Part shown: piece by piece, positions 35,016 to 42,411 of the stretch | How the letters are laid out: every line of letters begins with the position of its first letter | Position numbering within the stretch: position 1 is the first letter of the stretch | Assembly (NCBI GenBank): GCA_020631905.1 | Contig: JACKGQ010000001.1 | Coordinates: forward strand, 421,854 to 485,853 | Direction of reading: 5' to 3' | Source of the DNA: Candidatus Nomurabacteria bacterium | GTDB taxonomy: Bacteria > Patescibacteriota > Saccharimonadia > Saccharimonadales > VXPC01 | DNA length: 64,000 bases | The notes under the pieces: generated by a model | What the model was told of the DNA's origin: nothing | Seen by the model: only the letters and a program-made list of their open reading frames with translations | Databases searched by the model: none | Made by a program: the position numbers and the translations under genes

Positions 35016-35941
35016 TGCGAACGCTGGCCAGAATATTCACAAATGGTGTCCGCGGATTTATTCGAAATTCTTGGTTGTCGATTGCGGCAACGGCTGTGAT
35101 GGTGGTGGCAATTAGCATTATTTTGATGGCTTTGGTTCTGAACACGACTGCCAAAAATGCAATTACCGAGCTTAATAAAAATCTAAAAACTTCTATATAT
35201 CTGTTCGATAACTCACCGGTCTCGGTACGTAATCAACTGCGAGCTGAACTTACTCGCCAAGATTTTGTGTCTACGGTGGACTATATCGACAAACAGATGG
35301 CACAGCAACGTTTCAACGATATATTTAGCGAAGAAGCCGGCATTACCGAAGGTCTCGAGATTACCGGAGGTGGAATTTTTCCGGAGAGCTTCGAGGTTAG
35401 CGTCAACGACCTAAGCCGCATAAAAGAGATCGAGACTATTGCTCAAAAAGAAGAGTACAAGAGTGTCGTCGATAAGATTTCTCTCGCAAAGACCGAAGCC
35501 GAAAAAACAATCGAACGGGCGCACGCTGCTCAGAAATTTGTAGTTCGGGCAGGTGTGATATCTTCTTTGGTATTTGCAGGTGTTTCAATTCTGATCATTT
35601 TCAATACTATTAGGATGGCGATTTTTACCCGTAGCGAAGAGATTCATATTATGAAACTAATCGGGGCAACCCCGAGCTATATTCGAGGACCATTCTTGGT
35701 TGAGGCCAGTATGTACGGCGTGATCGCAGGAATAATTGCATTCTTTGGCGTATATTCACTGATAGCTTCGATTGGTAGCAAGATGGCAACCCAGCCAGAG
35801 TTCGCAGCAACTTATACATATTTTCAAGAACCCTCGACAATCATCTTCTTGTTACTCTGCGCGATAACTGGTGGCATTTTGGTTGGCGTTATTTCGTCGA
35901 TGTTAGCAATGGAAAAACACCTAAGACTGAAGAATTGGTAG
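35012..35941 (+). CDS. ftsX: Cell-division permease-like protein FtsX
   Basis: TM1, a large extracytoplasmic loop, then three C-terminal TM helices. Position is directly after ftsE. Confidence 0.88.
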   Translation: MMRTLARIFTNGVRGFIRNSWLSIAATAVMVVAISIILMALVLNTTAKNAITELNKNLKTSIYLFDNSPVSVRNQLRAELTRQDFVSTVDYIDKQMAQQRFNDIFSEEAGITEGLEITGGGIFPESFEVSVNDLSRIKEIETIAQKEEYKSVVDKISLAKTEAEKTIERAHAAQKFVVRAGVISSLVFAGVSILIIFNTIRMAIFTRSEEIHIMKLIGATPSYIRGPFLVEASMYGVIAGIIAFFGVYSLIASIGSKMATQPEFAATYTYFQEPSTIIFLLLCAITGGILVGVISSMLAMEKHLRLKNW

Positions 35942-35946
35942 AATAA

Positions 35947-37164
35947 GTGTACCCAAATAATCCCTATAATAAGTCCAACAAAGCCGGTAGAAGTATTGCG
36001 ATTGGCTCGATATTGTTAGTTTTAATAACTACTTTCTTTGTCGGTGTTCTGGTTGGTCAGAACGATTTACTAACAAGCCATAACACTAGCGAAATATCTG
36101 AAAACTCTCAGCTACCCCAAGACCTCGACTATCAGAGCGTAGAAGAAATCTACGATATCGTGCGCAAAAACTACGACGGCGAACTCAGCCAGGCTAGCTT
36201 TATGGACGAACTCAAGCAGGCGATAGCTCGAGCAACAGGCGATCCTTATACAGAGTACTTCAATGCCACTGATGCCGAAGTATTTAACCAAGAACTAGAA
36301 GGAAAATTTACTGGCATTGGTGCCGAGCTTGGTAAACGCGACGGAAACCTGATCATCGTGGCACCGCTAGCTGGTTATCCGGCCGAGGCTGCAGGCCTAA
36401 AACCACTCGATGTAATCGCCAAGATCGACGACGAAGATGCCACCGGTCTAACCGTTTACGAGGCGGTTACGAAAATTCGTGGTGAAGTCGATACAGACGT
36501 CAAACTTACAATTGTACGTAATGGTAAAGAAGTGATTGATTTTACAATTACTCGTATGCAGATCGACGCTCCAAGCGTAAGTTATGAAATCCAAGATAAT
36601 ATTGGTGTAATTAAACTAAGCCAGTTCCAGGCCGATTCGGATGAGCTCTTAGACAAAGCTGCCGAAGAATTACTGAAAGCCGGAGTTGAAGGCATCATAT
36701 TGGATCTGCGCGGTAATCCTGGCGGCTATCTAGACCAAGCTCAAAAAATACTTGGCGATTGGCTAGATTCGTCGCAAGTTGCTGTCGAAGTTCGACGTGG
36801 TGGTAAGGTCGAAGAAAAGCTATATGCGACTGGCGATAGTGTCTTTGCGAATATCCCAACTGTTGTCTTGATTAACGAAGGGAGTGCGAGTGCTAGCGAA
36901 ATCGTGGCCGGCGCACTTCAAGATTATGGTGTTGCTAAATTAGTCGGCAAACAAACTTTTGGCAAGGGCAGTGTCCAAAATATAGATCAGCTAGATAATG
37001 GCCAGTTGCTGAAGATTACGACAGGACATTGGTTTACGCCAAACGGCAGAGGTATAGATAAAGAGGGGATAGCCCCAGATGTTGAAGTCGAGCTGACAGA
37101 CAAAGATTATGATGCAGGTCGTGACCCGCAGCTAGACAAAGCTCTAGAACTTATAAAGCAGTAA
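35947..37164 (+). CDS. S41 family C-terminal processing peptidase
   Basis: N-terminal anchor, PDZ domain, DLRGNPGG, LINEGSASASEI (Ser) and GKQTFGKGSVQ (Lys) motifs. GTG start. Confidence 0.88.
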   Translation: MYPNNPYNKSNKAGRSIAIGSILLVLITTFFVGVLVGQNDLLTSHNTSEISENSQLPQDLDYQSVEEIYDIVRKNYDGELSQASFMDELKQAIARATGDPYTEYFNATDAEVFNQELEGKFTGIGAELGKRDGNLIIVAPLAGYPAEAAGLKPLDVIAKIDDEDATGLTVYEAVTKIRGEVDTDVKLTIVRNGKEVIDFTITRMQIDAPSVSYEIQDNIGVIKLSQFQADSDELLDKAAEELLKAGVEGIILDLRGNPGGYLDQAQKILGDWLDSSQVAVEVRRGGKVEEKLYATGDSVFANIPTVVLINEGSASASEIVAGALQDYGVAKLVGKQTFGKGSVQNIDQLDNGQLLKITTGHWFTPNGRGIDKEGIAPDVEVELTDKDYDAGRDPQLDKALELIKQ

Positions 37165-37565
37165 TAGTAATAATTTTTTGAAAGCTAAAGCTTCTGATTG
37201 CATGTAGCAATAAATACCATAGCCATTTTTGTGGGTAGTTTGGTATGATGTTGCGAGTTGGTATAACGCGCACGTGCTCGTGGCCAAAGTAGTGTAAAAA
37301 ATGATTTATGAACAAGCCTGAATGGCTAGAAGACAATTTTCTCTTGCTCAATGTATCGCTTCAGATACACTTCGCTCGACAGAGTTTGCTTCCATCTCAT
37401 TCATCCTAGCCCATAAAACATTCAATACACTACAATGCCCACATGTTTACCAGCGCTAAATATGGCAGAAGATGAAATAATCTTCGGTGGGTCTAACGCC
37501 CTCAAAGCCAAAAGCGCTATAACAAACACGTAAAGGCGCGTCTTTTTATTTTTTGGAGGTTATAA

Positions 37566-37829
37566 ATGAAACTGATTAACATTCGATTCTTCACTAAGAA
37601 CTCAGAACCAAGAACTCAGAACTCTCTGGCAGCAGGAGTTTGCGGTGCGTTTCCGGTAGATCTGAAAACCACGTATGAGGAGCTAGATTGGTTTTTCTTG
37701 GCGAGGAAGCTCCAAGGAGATGTAGATTGGCTACTTCGACTGAGCCCCACAGCCAAAAAAATCAAGCTAGCCCTCAAGCAAACTCAGAGTGCCGGGCTTT
37801 GCCTGGCAGCAGGAGTTTGCGGTGCGTAG
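37566..37829 (+). CDS. Possible 87-aa upstream ORF translationally coupled to pyrG (doubtful)
   Basis: GGAGG (37555-37559) lies 6 nt before the ATG. The stop TAG (37827-37829) overlaps the pyrG GTG (37822). The ORF contains both copies of the 25-bp repeat, read as LAAGVCGA each time. No family recognised. Confidence 0.3.
   Translation: MKLINIRFFTKNSEPRTQNSLAAGVCGAFPVDLKTTYEELDWFFLARKLQGDVDWLLRLSPTAKKIKLALKQTQSAGLCLAAGVCGA
37594..37625. repeat. Heptanucleotide tandem array (variant CNNAGAA unit)
   Basis: CTAAGAA CTCAGAA CCAAGAA CTCAGAA CTCT. It directly abuts direct-repeat copy 1. Confidence 0.8.
37626..37650 (+). repeat. 25-bp direct repeat, copy 1 (decoy RBS and GTG)
   Basis: CTGGCAGCAGGAGTTTGCGGTGCGT is identical to 37803-37827. 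Here the GTG (37645) opens only a 4-codon ORF (M-R-F-R-stop). Confidence 0.9.
37803..37827 (+). repeat. 25-bp direct repeat, copy 2 (carries the pyrG RBS and start)
   Basis: Identical 25-mer. AGGAG at 37811-37815, then a 6-nt spacer, then GTG at 37822. Confidence 0.9.
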
Positions 37830-39429
37830 TTCTCAGAAATACATAATTGTCACTGGCGGGGTAATATCTGGTAACGGCAAAGGCATAACCAGCGCCAGTA
37901 TTGGTGCCTGTCTAAAGGCGCGAGGAGTGAAGGTGAATATGCTGAAATTCGATATGTACCTAAACGTCGATGCGGGTACACTCAAACCAGGCAAACATGG
38001 AGAAGTCTTCGTAACCAAAGATGGTGCCGAAACTGACCTCGACCTTGGTCATTACGAACGTTTCTTAGATACCGAGATGACTCACAAAAGCTCAATTATG
38101 CAGGGGCGAATTTTAAAAGAGATAATCGACAAAGAGCGGTCTGGCGGCTTTAAAGGGGATGATGTACAAGTCTTGCCGCATGTAACTAACGCCATACAAG
38201 ATAAAATTCTCGAAGCTGCCGAAGGCTTTGATGTGCAAATGGTTGAGCTTGGTGGTACGGTTGGAGACTACGAAGGCATGGCGTTTGTCGAAGCGGTACG
38301 TCAGTTTGCCCACAGGGTCGGCCGCGAGAATATCATCTATGTCCACGTCGTTTATTTGCCTTACTTAGAAGTAAGTAACGAAATCAAAACCAAGCCTGCT
38401 CAAAATGCCGCCCGTGACTTGCGGAGTATTGGTATAAACCCAGACTTTTTGGTTGCGCGCTGTGAACACGCCCCGCAATCAAACACCATTTTTAAACTCA
38501 GTTTATTTACAGATATACCCGAAGAACGCATCGTGGTCTTGCAAAACGCCTCGACGGTTTACGAAGTGCCTCTAACGCTCGAAAAGCGAGGTATGGCCAG
38601 TGAGATAGCCCGGAAACTTGGAGTCAAACATCAACCAGATTTGTCTGCCTGGAAAACAGTGGTTAGCTCTGCCAAGAAGCAATATTCCAAGACAGTAAAA
38701 ATCGGCATGGTCGCCAAATATCTAGACAATCTCGATACCTACATGTCAGTTACCGAAGCCCTAAAAGCAGCTGCCTGGAGCGAAAAAGTTAACCTCGAAG
38801 TAATTTGGGTAAATGCCGAAGAGATCGAAAAGCTTAATCAGCGCGAGTTGGCTCTAGAGCTCATGAAATATCATGGTATTTTGGTTCCAGGAGGCTTTGG
38901 TGAGCGGGGTATCGAAGGCATGATTGCCACAGCCAACCAAGCTATCCATGCTAAAATTCCGTATTTTGGTATTTGTCTTGGCTTGCAAGTTGCCACAATC
39001 GCGTTTGCCCGCAATCAAGGTTTAGTACGAGCAAACTCTAAAGAATTCAACCCAAAAGGTGATCAGCTGGTGATTTCGACTATGCCTGGTCAAGAAGGTA
39101 AGGAAATGACTGGCGGCACGATGCGCCTAGGTAACTACCCCTGTGATTTAACCAAAGGCTCGTTAGCCGAGCAGCTATATGGCAAGCCTAAGATCGTCGA
39201 ACGGCATCGGCATCGGTTTGAATTCAACCCAGAATATAAAGACATGCTTGTAGCAGCTGGACTGAAAATAACTGGTATATGCCCAGAAAACGGACTTGCA
39301 GAAATTATTGAGCTTGGCGACCATCCATATTTTATTGGCTGTCAGTACCACCCTGAGTTTTTGTCGCGCCCAACCCGACCACATCCGCTCTTTAGTGGAC
39401 TAATCCGAGCGGCTAAGAAACGCACCTAA
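37822..39429 (+). CDS. pyrG: CTP synthase
   Basis: KYIIVTGGVISGNGKGITSAS N-terminus, GATase domain with GICLGLQ and HRHRFEFN. I prefer the GTG at 37822 because of its RBS. The ORF track starts at the GTG at 37789. Confidence 0.93.
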   Translation: MRSSQKYIIVTGGVISGNGKGITSASIGACLKARGVKVNMLKFDMYLNVDAGTLKPGKHGEVFVTKDGAETDLDLGHYERFLDTEMTHKSSIMQGRILKEIIDKERSGGFKGDDVQVLPHVTNAIQDKILEAAEGFDVQMVELGGTVGDYEGMAFVEAVRQFAHRVGRENIIYVHVVYLPYLEVSNEIKTKPAQNAARDLRSIGINPDFLVARCEHAPQSNTIFKLSLFTDIPEERIVVLQNASTVYEVPLTLEKRGMASEIARKLGVKHQPDLSAWKTVVSSAKKQYSKTVKIGMVAKYLDNLDTYMSVTEALKAAAWSEKVNLEVIWVNAEEIEKLNQRELALELMKYHGILVPGGFGERGIEGMIATANQAIHAKIPYFGICLGLQVATIAFARNQGLVRANSKEFNPKGDQLVISTMPGQEGKEMTGGTMRLGNYPCDLTKGSLAEQLYGKPKIVERHRHRFEFNPEYKDMLVAAGLKITGICPENGLAEIIELGDHPYFIGCQYHPEFLSRPTRPHPLFSGLIRAAKKRT

Positions 39430-40711: not shown

Positions 40712-40804
40712 GTGACTACTTGTTTTTGATATAGAGGGGAGCACATGGCTCCACCCAGGTTGAGGTTAGCTGGCAAGACTAGCACTTGAACCTCCCTGGG
40801 CTTT

Positions 40805-40838
40805 AGGGCTTGAGATTTCTCAAGCCCTATTATTTTTT
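40805..40838 (+). terminator. Rho-independent terminator
   Basis: AGGGCTTGAG, loop ATTT, CTCAAGCCCT, followed by TATTATTTTTT. Confidence 0.85.
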
Positions 40839-40853
40839 GCTATAACCATAACC

Positions 40854-40882
40854 TTTACAAAAACGCATAAACATGCTAATAT
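40854..40882 (+). promoter_or_regulatory. Promoter of the 499-aa orphan gene (member of a duplicated promoter module)
   Basis: TTTACA, 17-nt spacer, TAATAT, with a TGC extended -10. About 50 bp are ~85% identical to 42411-42460. Confidence 0.65.
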
Positions 40883-40911
40883 TTAAGATGTAAATATCTA
40901 AAAACAAAAAA

Positions 40912-42411
40912 ATGCATAACATCGACTCAGATCCCACCTTAACCGTTCCAAGTAGTTTGGTGGAGTTGCGTGAGCAAAGGCACAAACGAACTGCCGAAGC
41001 AGCTCTGGCTCAATTTAAATCTAAGCTTCAAGACGTGGCCGACCCATATATTGGTATTGGCTTGTTAGAAGGTACGGTTGAACGTGGTTCGACTACCGAC
41101 GAGTACACGGTATTTTCGAAAACAAAGGTCATTCTGGGCGAGCTCGGTATGGATGTCGACAGCTTTTTAGAAGGAGACGATGACAGCGCAAAGATCGAGT
41201 TACTAGGCAGCAATTTTGTGGCGAGTAAGCTCGGACCGCATGGGTTTAGCCTTAGGGTAGTCGAAAGGCCTGATTCCGGAGAGTTCAAAGCAAAGTTAGC
41301 TGCAAAAGTCGAAGGACTGCCAGTATTGACAGCCTGTAATGAGCTACTTGCCAAAGGTGACATCCGTGAAGAGCAGGTGGTCGAAGCCAAGATAACCGAT
41401 AGACTCGAGCAACTTTGGATACTCGAAGCTATGTTGGATGTGACTTTGGACAAAGAAGATAAAGACCTGCAATTAGAAGCTGCACTAGACCGGGCAATGG
41501 CCGATGGCGCCAAACTTACCATGGAAAACAAAGATGGCAGTCGTATCTATCGGCGCTGGAATAGCTTCATCGAGCTCGGAGTCTGGATTCGACCTGGTAA
41601 AACTGGCGAAGAAATAGTTGGTTTGTCGGCGCGGATGCATGACCAGGCAAATCAAGAATATCTAAATCAAAATGTATATGTAACCGTAGAGCCACTAATC
41701 GAAACTTCTGAGGCAGAGTCGTTTTTTGCCGAGTTGGAATACCGTGGACTAGAGTTAGCCGATGAAATAAAATGGGTTCTCACTAACCCGGGGCAGTCGA
41801 ATCGCTACGGAGGCCCATACACTCTGATGAGCCGCGAAGTCGCGAAATGGGTCATGGAAGGCGGGGTAGATGAATATAGATTGGCTAAAATTTTTAAATT
41901 CGATAGTGATGCCTACCTAGGCACAATAGATGCCCTAAAATCAATAAATGTAGATGTACTCGGTGAAGGCTTTGCAACACTTGTTGGGTTGATGCAAGAC
42001 TGTCTCGAGCCAACAGGACAGGGTTTACCAGCGATTCATGCCACTAATATTAGAGGCGAAATAAAAGAAGGTGCATGTGCAGATATGGCTACTTATTACC
42101 TTAGAGCAAAACTCAGAGAAACTAATATTGGACAAGACAGTAATCATGTGCCTGCTTGGCACAAATTAAATGAAGGTGTAGAAACAGTTATTACCAAAGA
42201 GCCGGCGAGTATCAATGGTATCAAGGTACCTCCAGGTGCTTTACTGAAACAACAGGCGGATGGTGGGTACTTACTCCAGCGATTAACACCTTGGGCGCTC
42301 GGGCAGTCAGAATCTCGATGGCAAGTTTTTGGTGCGGAACTCCAAAAAGCAGCCTCACTGGGTAACACATTCCATAACTTGAGCGCTATAGCAACTAGAT
42401 ACTTGGTATAA
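40912..42411 (+). CDS. Hypothetical protein (499 aa), no signal peptide
   Basis: Long ORF with its own promoter. No motif recognised. Confidence 0.75.
   Translation: MHNIDSDPTLTVPSSLVELREQRHKRTAEAALAQFKSKLQDVADPYIGIGLLEGTVERGSTTDEYTVFSKTKVILGELGMDVDSFLEGDDDSAKIELLGSNFVASKLGPHGFSLRVVERPDSGEFKAKLAAKVEGLPVLTACNELLAKGDIREEQVVEAKITDRLEQLWILEAMLDVTLDKEDKDLQLEAALDRAMADGAKLTMENKDGSRIYRRWNSFIELGVWIRPGKTGEEIVGLSARMHDQANQEYLNQNVYVTVEPLIETSEAESFFAELEYRGLELADEIKWVLTNPGQSNRYGGPYTLMSREVAKWVMEGGVDEYRLAKIFKFDSDAYLGTIDALKSINVDVLGEGFATLVGLMQDCLEPTGQGLPAIHATNIRGEIKEGACADMATYYLRAKLRETNIGQDSNHVPAWHKLNEGVETVITKEPASINGIKVPPGALLKQQADGGYLLQRLTPWALGQSESRWQVFGAELQKAASLGNTFHNLSAIATRYLV

Follow-up and report, generated by a model that had tools for sequence, protein, structure and literature searches.

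In a 64-kb stretch of DNA (the window, in which positions are counted from the first letter) from the ~770-kb metagenome-assembled genome (MAG) of a Candidatus Saccharibacteria bacterium, we noticed that pyrG, the gene for CTP synthase, is separated from its old initiation site by a segment found in none of the 31 relatives examined. We consider it probable that the 5′ end of this pyrG bears an evolutionary scar and not a conserved regulatory leader; namely, one or more insertions would have been rescued by a new start codon and by translational coupling. The gene itself is intact on the + strand (37822..39429, 535 aa; CTP_synth_N, 4e-105; GATase, 2e-39), and its start at GTG 37822 is the one used by NCBI and by gene calls. 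The gap between the upstream gene for an S41 protease and this GTG amounts to 657 nt and is the second longest among the 63 gaps between open reading frames (ORFs) in the window (median 53 nt, 90th percentile 194 nt). A previous reading of the same DNA from its letters alone (the sequence-only reading) had pointed to this unusually long spacer and, within it, to an exact 25-bp direct repeat, a heptamer array, an 87-codon ORF with a stop overlapping the pyrG GTG and a tiny decoy ORF, and all of these were indeed found. It had proposed either a regulatory leader or a small insertion, but had missed that the start of the upstream ORF is the old start of pyrG, that the interval between the repeat copies is a single hairpin, and that part of the leader at 37165-37555 is conserved with the nearest relative.

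The ancestral start of pyrG and the inserted segment

The gene order FtsE-FtsX-S41 protease-pyrG-response regulator is syntenic across Saccharimonadales. In a large protein database, the closest relatives by pyrG identity were the loci L164-L166 (83%), L167 (79%) and L169 (69%), with the rest lower, while the best pyrG identity in GTDB representative genomes and JGI metagenomes was just 58%; with S41 as the query, no relative closer than 61% identity was hit. The pyrG upstream region was then compared among 31 Saccharimonadales relatives, 14 of which were covered by tblastn synteny and a listing of the ORFs in the gap, L164, L167, L169 and L172-L175 at the level of DNA, and 9 further proteins by their N-termini only.

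In this comparison, window positions 37535-37560 match positions 3966-3991 of L164, which lie directly 5′ of the pyrG ATG in that relative, with 23 identities out of 26 over GGCGCGT, a T-tract and GGAGGT. The S41-pyrG gap of L164 is 209 nt long and ends with ...GGCGCGTTTTTTTGTTTTATGGAGGTGAAAACAGC-ATG-AAA, the counterparts of which are GGCGCGTCTTTTTATTTTTTGGAGGTTATAA-ATG-AAA at 37535-37571 in the window and GGAGGTATAAA-GTG-AAA in L167; also, GGAGGTATAAAGTGAAA of L167 is aligned with GGAGGTTATAAATGAAA of the window in the start region. The window site in question consists of the Shine-Dalgarno (SD) sequence GGAGG (37555-37559), a 6-nt spacer, ATG 37566 and AAA (together 37555..37571, + strand), and it opens the 87-codon ORF (hereafter orf87). 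Among the 228 sites in the window that combine an SD with a start codon, the start of orf87 ranks first against the pyrG initiation regions of both L164 (z 5.8) and L167 (z 4.2); the present GTG 37822 ranks 189 and 183, respectively. Since the orf87 start is thus the best match to the pyrG initiation regions of both relatives, ATG 37566 is, judged from this homology, the ancestral pyrG start, and GGAGG-6 nt-ATG is pyrG's own ancestral initiation site.

From CAG-AAA-TAC (37834) onward, the body of pyrG is again homologous, and the ~262 nt between ATG-AAA and this point (37572..37833, + strand; 3n+1 in length) are therefore regarded as a lineage-specific insert. Indeed, this insert was found in none of the 31 relatives, every one of which has pyrG directly after its SD, and none of the 31 has an upstream ORF like orf87; in three of them, gaps of 58-80 nt hold no ORF of at least 60 aa. 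When the 262 nt are removed in silico, MKQKYIIVTGGV is obtained, and with it the canonical pyrG N-terminus MKQKYIIVTGG. The idea of an insertion, which the sequence-only reading had put forward as a small one with 25 bp of target duplicated, is thereby supported at a larger scale. In order, the insert is composed of 21 nt of unique sequence, the heptamer (or 14-mer) array, copy 1 of the direct repeat, a 152-nt interval, and copy 2 with 6 nt more. Searches of the rest of the window, of 172 related loci, and of phage and plasmid records detected no similar DNA.

Other origins were also considered and rejected. The first 54 nt of the insert after ATG-AAA do not appear to be a decayed duplicate of the 5′ coding region of pyrG (P 0.5-1.0), and the S41-pyrG gap does not appear to be a pseudogene of an EamA-like 141-aa gene or of a 237-aa gene, no tblastn match being obtained even at E <= 100. 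P0008 (581 aa), a relative examined for a comparable insertion at its N-terminus, turned out merely to have its start codon called too far upstream.

Repeat, hairpins and bridging frame

The exact 25-bp direct repeat, CTGGCAGCAGGAGTTTGCGGTGCGT, occurs twice on the + strand, at 37626..37650 and 37803..37827, and is the longest direct repeat of the window; 0 of 100 shuffles gave a match even when 3 mismatches were allowed, and no exact copy of the 25-mer was found in viral contigs. Copy 2 supplies the present SD of pyrG (AGGAG 37811-37815) together with the GTG 37822 start, and copy 1 holds the same pair at AGGAG 37634-37638 and GTG 37645. The latter GTG is followed by CGT TTC CGG TAG, so that a decoy ORF encoding only M-R-F-R-stop is opened at 37645-37659 (TAG 37657-37659). 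No significant similarity exists between the flanks of the two copies (P 0.05-0.67), and the edges of the repeat are hence sharp; a degenerate extension of the repeat into the flanks was accordingly dismissed as not significant. Upstream of copy 1 lies the heptamer array (37593..37624, + strand; ACTCAGA-like, period 7, 4.6 copies by Tandem Repeats Finder), which can alternatively be described as a tandem duplication, namely an exact 14-mer repeated 1.9 times. While the sequence-only reading had asked whether related genomes have one or two copies of the repeat upstream of pyrG, the repeat is present in none of those examined, and neither the decoy nor the hairpin between the copies is conserved in any of them.

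We also noticed a 12-nt exact repeat, GAATTCAACCCA, within pyrG (39043-39054 and 39220-39231), which encodes EFNP at both places. Its start-to-start spacing of 177 nt equals that of the 25-bp repeat; the two intervals have no sequence similarity, and the common spacing is probably a coincidence.

The 152-nt interval between the copies of the 25-bp repeat is filled by an imperfect hairpin of 143 nt (37653..37795, + strand), in which 51 base pairs (26 GC, 22 AU and 3 GU) are predicted. The internal repeats that had been noted in this interval are present, but they are parts of this one hairpin and not separate elements. Its predicted energy is -59.8 kcal/mol (z -5.5, 0 of 200 shuffles as stable), whereas the minus strand folds less well (-52.8 kcal/mol, z -3.4), and of 2555 segments of 150 nt in a sliding scan of the + strand, just one is more stable than 37676-37825. 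No other repeat-flanked hairpin was found in the 64 kb.

Another hairpin is predicted to involve the SD of pyrG (37778..37820, + strand; -27.8 kcal/mol, z -3.6), in which GCAAACUC pairs with GAGUUUGC of copy 2 and UGCCGGGC pairs with GCCUGGCA. The stem of this SD hairpin would take in the spacer and three bases of the 5-nt SD, and the folds in which the SD and GTG of pyrG are free are 17-19 kcal/mol less stable. The SD hairpin and the base of the 143-nt hairpin are predicted to be mutually exclusive. Furthermore, the same anti-SD segment (37778-37797) may instead be paired with copy 1, in a fold that lies just 5.6 kcal/mol above the minimum-free-energy fold. In the ensemble, the ancestral ATG is unpaired with a probability of 0.75 and the decoy SD with that of 0.00.

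The ancestral and the present start of pyrG are bridged by orf87, which runs from ATG 37566 through the insert to TAG 37827-37829 (37566..37829, + strand). Its stop and the GTG 37822 of pyrG overlap in GTGCGTAG with a co-directional spacing of -8, one of the three overlap motifs that are enriched in coupled gene pairs (PMC12548453). Along orf87, the other two frames contain 8 and 3 stops, and the chance that the frame of orf87 stays open is estimated from shuffles at P = 0.019. The unit of repeat and hairpin is 177 nt long, corresponding to 59 codons without a stop (P = 0.07), and the two 25-bp copies are read in the same frame of orf87. The sequence-only reading had suggested translational coupling between the two ORFs, and the architecture, i.e., the -8 overlap, the SD within a predicted hairpin, and the improbably open frame, supports the notion that translation of pyrG may be coupled to that of orf87. 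Co-directional -8 overlap with the downstream SD in a stable hairpin would indeed liken this pair to known coupled ones such as genes VII/IX of phage f1 and the coat and lysis genes of MS2 (PMC12548453). Unlike in those pairs, however, the upstream partner is an orphan, which appears to have been created by insertion and to use the ancestral initiation site of pyrG, and the coupling is deduced from the layout.

The upstream leader and other structured stretches

Between the S41 stop and pyrG, only one sigma-70-like match was found on the + strand, a promoter-like site of the extended -10 type, TGGTATGAT (37220..37249; -10 hexamer at 37244-37249). There is no promoter-like site between 37250 and pyrG, and hence none inside the insert. 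The pairwise alignment with L164, in which the coding DNA of the window is 67-73% identical as a background, has in common a -10-like GTTTGGTAT(G/A)(A/G)T and a further short element, AATACCAT. A box, AACGCGCACGTGC (37265..37277, + strand), which contains the palindrome GCACGTGC, is identical in L164 at 13 of 13 positions and would provide a long-range closing helix with its 5′ strand. In the minimum-free-energy fold, ACGCGCACGTG (37266-37276) pairs across ~260 nt with CACGT (37527-37531) and GCGCGT (37536-37541), and this 3′ strand is followed by the T-tract TTTTTATTTTTT at 37543-37554; from the fold and the L164 alignment, the element as a whole (37527..37554, + strand) is attenuator-like. 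An equivalent closing helix is predicted in the leader of L164, and the predicted fold of the leader has -86.8 kcal/mol and z -4.55 in the window and z -2.2 in L164. While a GC hairpin in front of the T-tract had been proposed by the sequence-only reading, a scan of 36900-38100 returned 0 canonical terminator sites, and the long-range pairing over ~260 nt is predicted in its place.

The middle of the leader is expanded in the window by an imperfect inverted repeat with 45-nt arms that are 73% complementary (37280..37442, + strand). No longer inverted repeat was found in the window, and L164 lacks a counterpart; kinship with the hairpin at 37653-37795 was considered and rejected, the two sequences being unrelated. 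Scanning the leader with the covariance models of Rfam, as had been proposed, gave no family but only noise (E >= 1.2) for 37000-38000 and also for the L164 leader, and the elements of the leader are not shared by more distant relatives. The stretch 37165-37555 thus looks, from the alignment and the predicted fold, like a clade-specific 5′ leader or attenuator of pyrG, and its promoter-like site, GCACGTGC box and long-range helix with U-tract would offer a separate, modest lead to the control of pyrG in this clade.

The attenuator of pyrG known from Bacillus subtilis is based on CTP-sensitive reiterative transcription (10.1101/732214). The present leader is similar to that type in that the same gene is preceded by a long 5′ leader with a helix and a U-tract upstream of the ancestral SD, an arrangement kept in L164. 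Unlike the Bacillus type, however, no GGGC was found as an initially transcribed sequence: the sole + strand GGGC in 37165-37829 is located at 37794-37797, within the SD hairpin of the insert and with no promoter-like site upstream, and the promoter-like site ending at 37249 is followed by GTTGCGAG. Also, a canonical terminator hairpin whose 5′ strand is rich in pyrimidines was not found, and the statement of the sequence-only reading that the arrangement does not resemble CTP-sensitive reiterative transcription therefore holds.

In the wider neighborhood, the cargo of the S41-pyrG junction differs among Saccharimonadales, marking the junction as a recurrent insertion spot. L010 (3057-3746) has a pair of 87-aa and 138-aa ORFs that looks like an antitoxin/PIN-toxin pair, and in L013 (2986-3483) there is a 165-aa ORF resembling ribosomal protein L9, both likenesses being judged by eye without a domain search. 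The junction is occupied by a gene for an EamA-like membrane protein in L167 (3482-3907) and by those for proteins of no known identity in L169 (3149-3862, 237 aa) and L001 (2226-3704, 492 aa). On the other side of S41, the gene follows FtsX within ~170 nt in the window (35941-35947) and in the closest relatives L164, L167, L169 and L173, and ~1.4-1.6 kb, presumably with an extra gene, separates FtsX from S41 in most of the more distant Saccharimonadales.

Elsewhere in the window, the ~200-nt gap after a 134-aa ORF (40712-40915) is 69% identical to L164 6485-6695, and several helices are predicted in it, of which 6 pairs are compensatory relative to L164, for example in the GGGGAGCAC...GCUCC hairpin. 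The helices are followed by a canonical terminator (AGGGCTTGAGA/TCTCAAGCCCT and a T-run) and then by a conserved promoter-like site, TTTACA-N17-TAATAT. This stretch has no match in Rfam and is a candidate for a small structured RNA or a 3′ element. On the minus strand at 1690-2202 lies an ORF of 170 aa that matches no Pfam family and has ~62% GC as compared with ~44% of the genome; a perfect palindrome, CTGCCACCGGCTC...GAGCCGGTGGCAG, flanks it at about 1640-1683. No part of the window is more strongly structured, on either strand, than the surrounding 1625-2230 (z about -5.8), which is probably of foreign origin. The longest gap of the window without ORFs (980-1689, 710 nt) contains an AT-rich run of the AAATTT/AATTT type (~1060-1095) and an inverted repeat with 24-nt arms (1388-1492), and only sub-threshold noise was obtained there with Rfam. 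Across the entire 64 kb, no tRNA gene, tmRNA or Rfam match at the gathering level was found.

Explanations of the insert and their meaning

According to the reading that we favor, the ancestor would have had the promoter-like site, a structured leader ending with GGCGCG and the U-tract, and GGAGG-N6-ATG-AAA, with pyrG directly after. In the present lineage, ~262 nt would have been inserted right behind ATG-AAA, probably in at least two steps. In the latest of these, a segment of 152 nt able to form a hairpin would have been inserted with duplication of 25 bp of the target, which would already have borne the replacement SD and GTG. Such an insertion would be survivable only when an intact SD and GTG remain beside pyrG, and a 25-bp duplication guarantees both; duplication on insertion would therefore explain the repeat best. 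Translation of pyrG would now start at GTG 37822. Given that the pyrG SD is predicted to be buried in a stable hairpin and that the insert has no promoter-like site, we infer a route through the ancestral ATG: ribosomes would load at the strong SD/ATG 37566, translate orf87 through both hairpins, and hand over to pyrG at the overlapping stop and start, either by unfolding of the RNA, with the SD hairpin melted, or by termination-reinitiation. That the frame has stayed open, and that the 177-nt unit preserves it, would be explained if this hand-over has been under selection. The SD/GTG of copy 1 and its 4-codon ORF would then be a non-functional by-product of the duplication.

Several points weigh against this scenario of insertion and rescue. 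The nearest relative is distant (83% identity in pyrG and 61% in S41) and does not fix the timing and the number of the events, and within the same species no allele with an "empty site" was found. Target-site duplications are usually 2-14 bp long, and 25 bp is far longer than those known for transposases. Also, neither the 64 kb nor any of the collections searched contains a second copy of the hairpin, the mobility of which is thus hypothetical. The exactness of the repeat and the pairing of copy 1 with the anti-SD (+5.6 kcal/mol) would also fit a functional RNA switch, and the better folding of the + strand over the - strand hints at selection at the RNA level. RNA folding and translation have furthermore been treated entirely in silico, and the promoter scan was sigma-70-like, while Saccharibacteria may follow other promoter rules.

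Some of these points lead directly to the alternative that the region is a dedicated regulatory leader, in which the decoy SD/GTG, the mini-ORF and the hairpins serve as a ribosome- or metabolite-responsive switch on pyrG translation. Copy 1 might compete for the anti-SD at 37778-37797, or the mini-ORF, whose stop lies at the foot of the hairpin (37653), might pass ribosomes to the identical site on the far side. Such a switch would be in line with an exact 25-mer that contains both SD and GTG, with the mutually exclusive folds, with the low cost of the pairing by copy 1, and with the strand preference of the fold; also, upstream elements of the leader are conserved with L164. The repeat, decoy and hairpin are, however, in no relative examined and hence do not represent a conserved design, and in the predicted ensemble the decoy SD, too, is completely paired. 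Neither a sensing element nor a known RNA family was found, nor were the GGGC feature of the known pyrG attenuator and a canonical terminator. The regulatory leader offered by the sequence-only reading is therefore not borne out in the form of a dedicated, conserved device that would sense pyrimidines by means of the decoy SD/GTG, and we think a regulatory switch in general unlikely.

Somewhat less likely again, in our estimate, is that orf87 is a real gene for a small protein acquired upstream of pyrG, with the repeat being incidental, for example an in-gene duplication that encodes LAAGVCGA twice. The strong SD and ATG, the 87 open codons (P ~0.02), and the common frame of both copies would be compatible with a gene, and NCBI indeed annotates orf87 as a hypothetical protein (KC878_02450). 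Its codon score (0.068) exceeds that of almost all off-frame segments, but it is far from the gene mean (0.356) and falls short of the 5th percentile for segments of real genes (0.132). Neither among 5.8 billion clustered proteins nor among 1.84 billion representatives was a credible homologue found, and a word-indexed search with orf87 returned orf87 only. The matches obtained with phmmer (E 5e-8 to 2.5e-4) were multi-stretch ones to repeat proteins of the SBBP/beta-propeller type or to translated repeats and were judged to be spurious. No family of Pfam, PHROG or NCBIfam was matched, and AlphaFold2 gave a predicted local distance difference test score (pLDDT) of 43. Two thirds of the ORF are, moreover, a translated DNA palindrome, and its SD/ATG is pyrG's own. 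It is thus probable that orf87 is a spacer ORF rather than a functional protein and that KC878_02450 is not a protein in its own right.

A slim chance is left, for the two taken together, to the bolder proposals that the insert is a new palindromic insertion element of the Candidate Phyla Radiation (CPR), entering in frame with a target duplication of ~25 bp, or that the region is a purpose-built translational device. In the latter, the decoy SD/GTG with its 4-codon ORF, the 143-nt hairpin, the identical SD/GTG on the far side, and the shared anti-SD would set the output by ribosome traffic, in what could be likened to a bacterial analogue of hairpin shunting. As for the former, Rickettsia palindromic elements (RPEs) are known as palindromic insertions placed in frame into ORFs (PMC10969869). 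Like RPEs and intragenic elements resembling transposable elements of the miniature inverted-repeat type (MITEs), the pyrG insert has a long-hairpin segment of ~150 nt that keeps the frame (59 codons with the repeat) and provides new peptide sequence, and with its 143 nt and 51 base pairs (z -5.5) it is a small hairpin-forming element in their sense. Unlike RPEs and MITEs, which are multi-copy, the hairpin occurs only once across the window, the 172 related loci, and the phage, plasmid and viral collections. It also differs from both in the unusually long direct repeat of 25 bp that flanks it, and from RPEs in being located in a bridge ORF before a gene, not inside a functional protein. No paper linking MITE-like elements with Saccharibacteria was found in the library searched. 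Elements flanked by attL/attR also have exact direct repeats of tens of base pairs, the downstream copy of which restores the start region of a gene; unlike in those elements, only 152 nt lie between the repeats here, with no integrase and no ORF other than the read-through frame. An att-flanked origin would thus need a heavily deleted remnant, and no related element was found.

It is very improbable that the insert is an intervening sequence, removed like an intron or bypassed by the ribosome, with pyrG still translated from the ancestral ATG. CPR bacteria do carry unusual insertions in rRNA genes, and precise loss of 37572-37833 would give the canonical MKQKYIIV; however, no group I or group II intron was matched even at E <= 10, the fold is a simple hairpin and not that of a ribozyme, take-off and landing codons that match each other are missing at the boundaries of the insert, and full-length pyrG is obtained from a good SD and GTG situated precisely where the insert ends on its 3′ side. 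Least credible of all is an artefact of assembly such as a mis-join or a collapsed repeat: repeats can mislead assembly, and the source is a MAG, but the region is found at 100% identity in contig JAGQMU010000039 of GCA_020428525.1 and in two ENA assemblies (records L081-L083), the presence of the same sequence in three separate assembly records excludes an error of one assembly, orf87 is carried on six contigs, a 25-bp repeat is below the usual assembly k-mers, and pyrG and its flanking genes are intact and syntenic.

In conclusion, the 5′ end of this pyrG combines known kinds of event, namely in-frame palindromic insertion and translational coupling, and has been seen once, in one uncultivated lineage; its significance is therefore considered to be moderate to low, unless the repeat and hairpin turn out to represent a new type of mobile element or a working switch. 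For annotators, the "hypothetical protein" KC878_02450 would be a caution. If the proposed insertion and rescue are true, pyrG would be a natural case of an essential gene that has survived the separation of its coding body from its ribosome-binding site by an insertion, in which a new internal start has been recruited and the old initiation site still serves by way of a bridging ORF, the two being joined by the overlap of stop and start. Such a case would bear on how upstream ORFs and translational coupling can originate from insertions, and also on the plasticity of the reduced genomes of CPR bacteria and Saccharibacteria.

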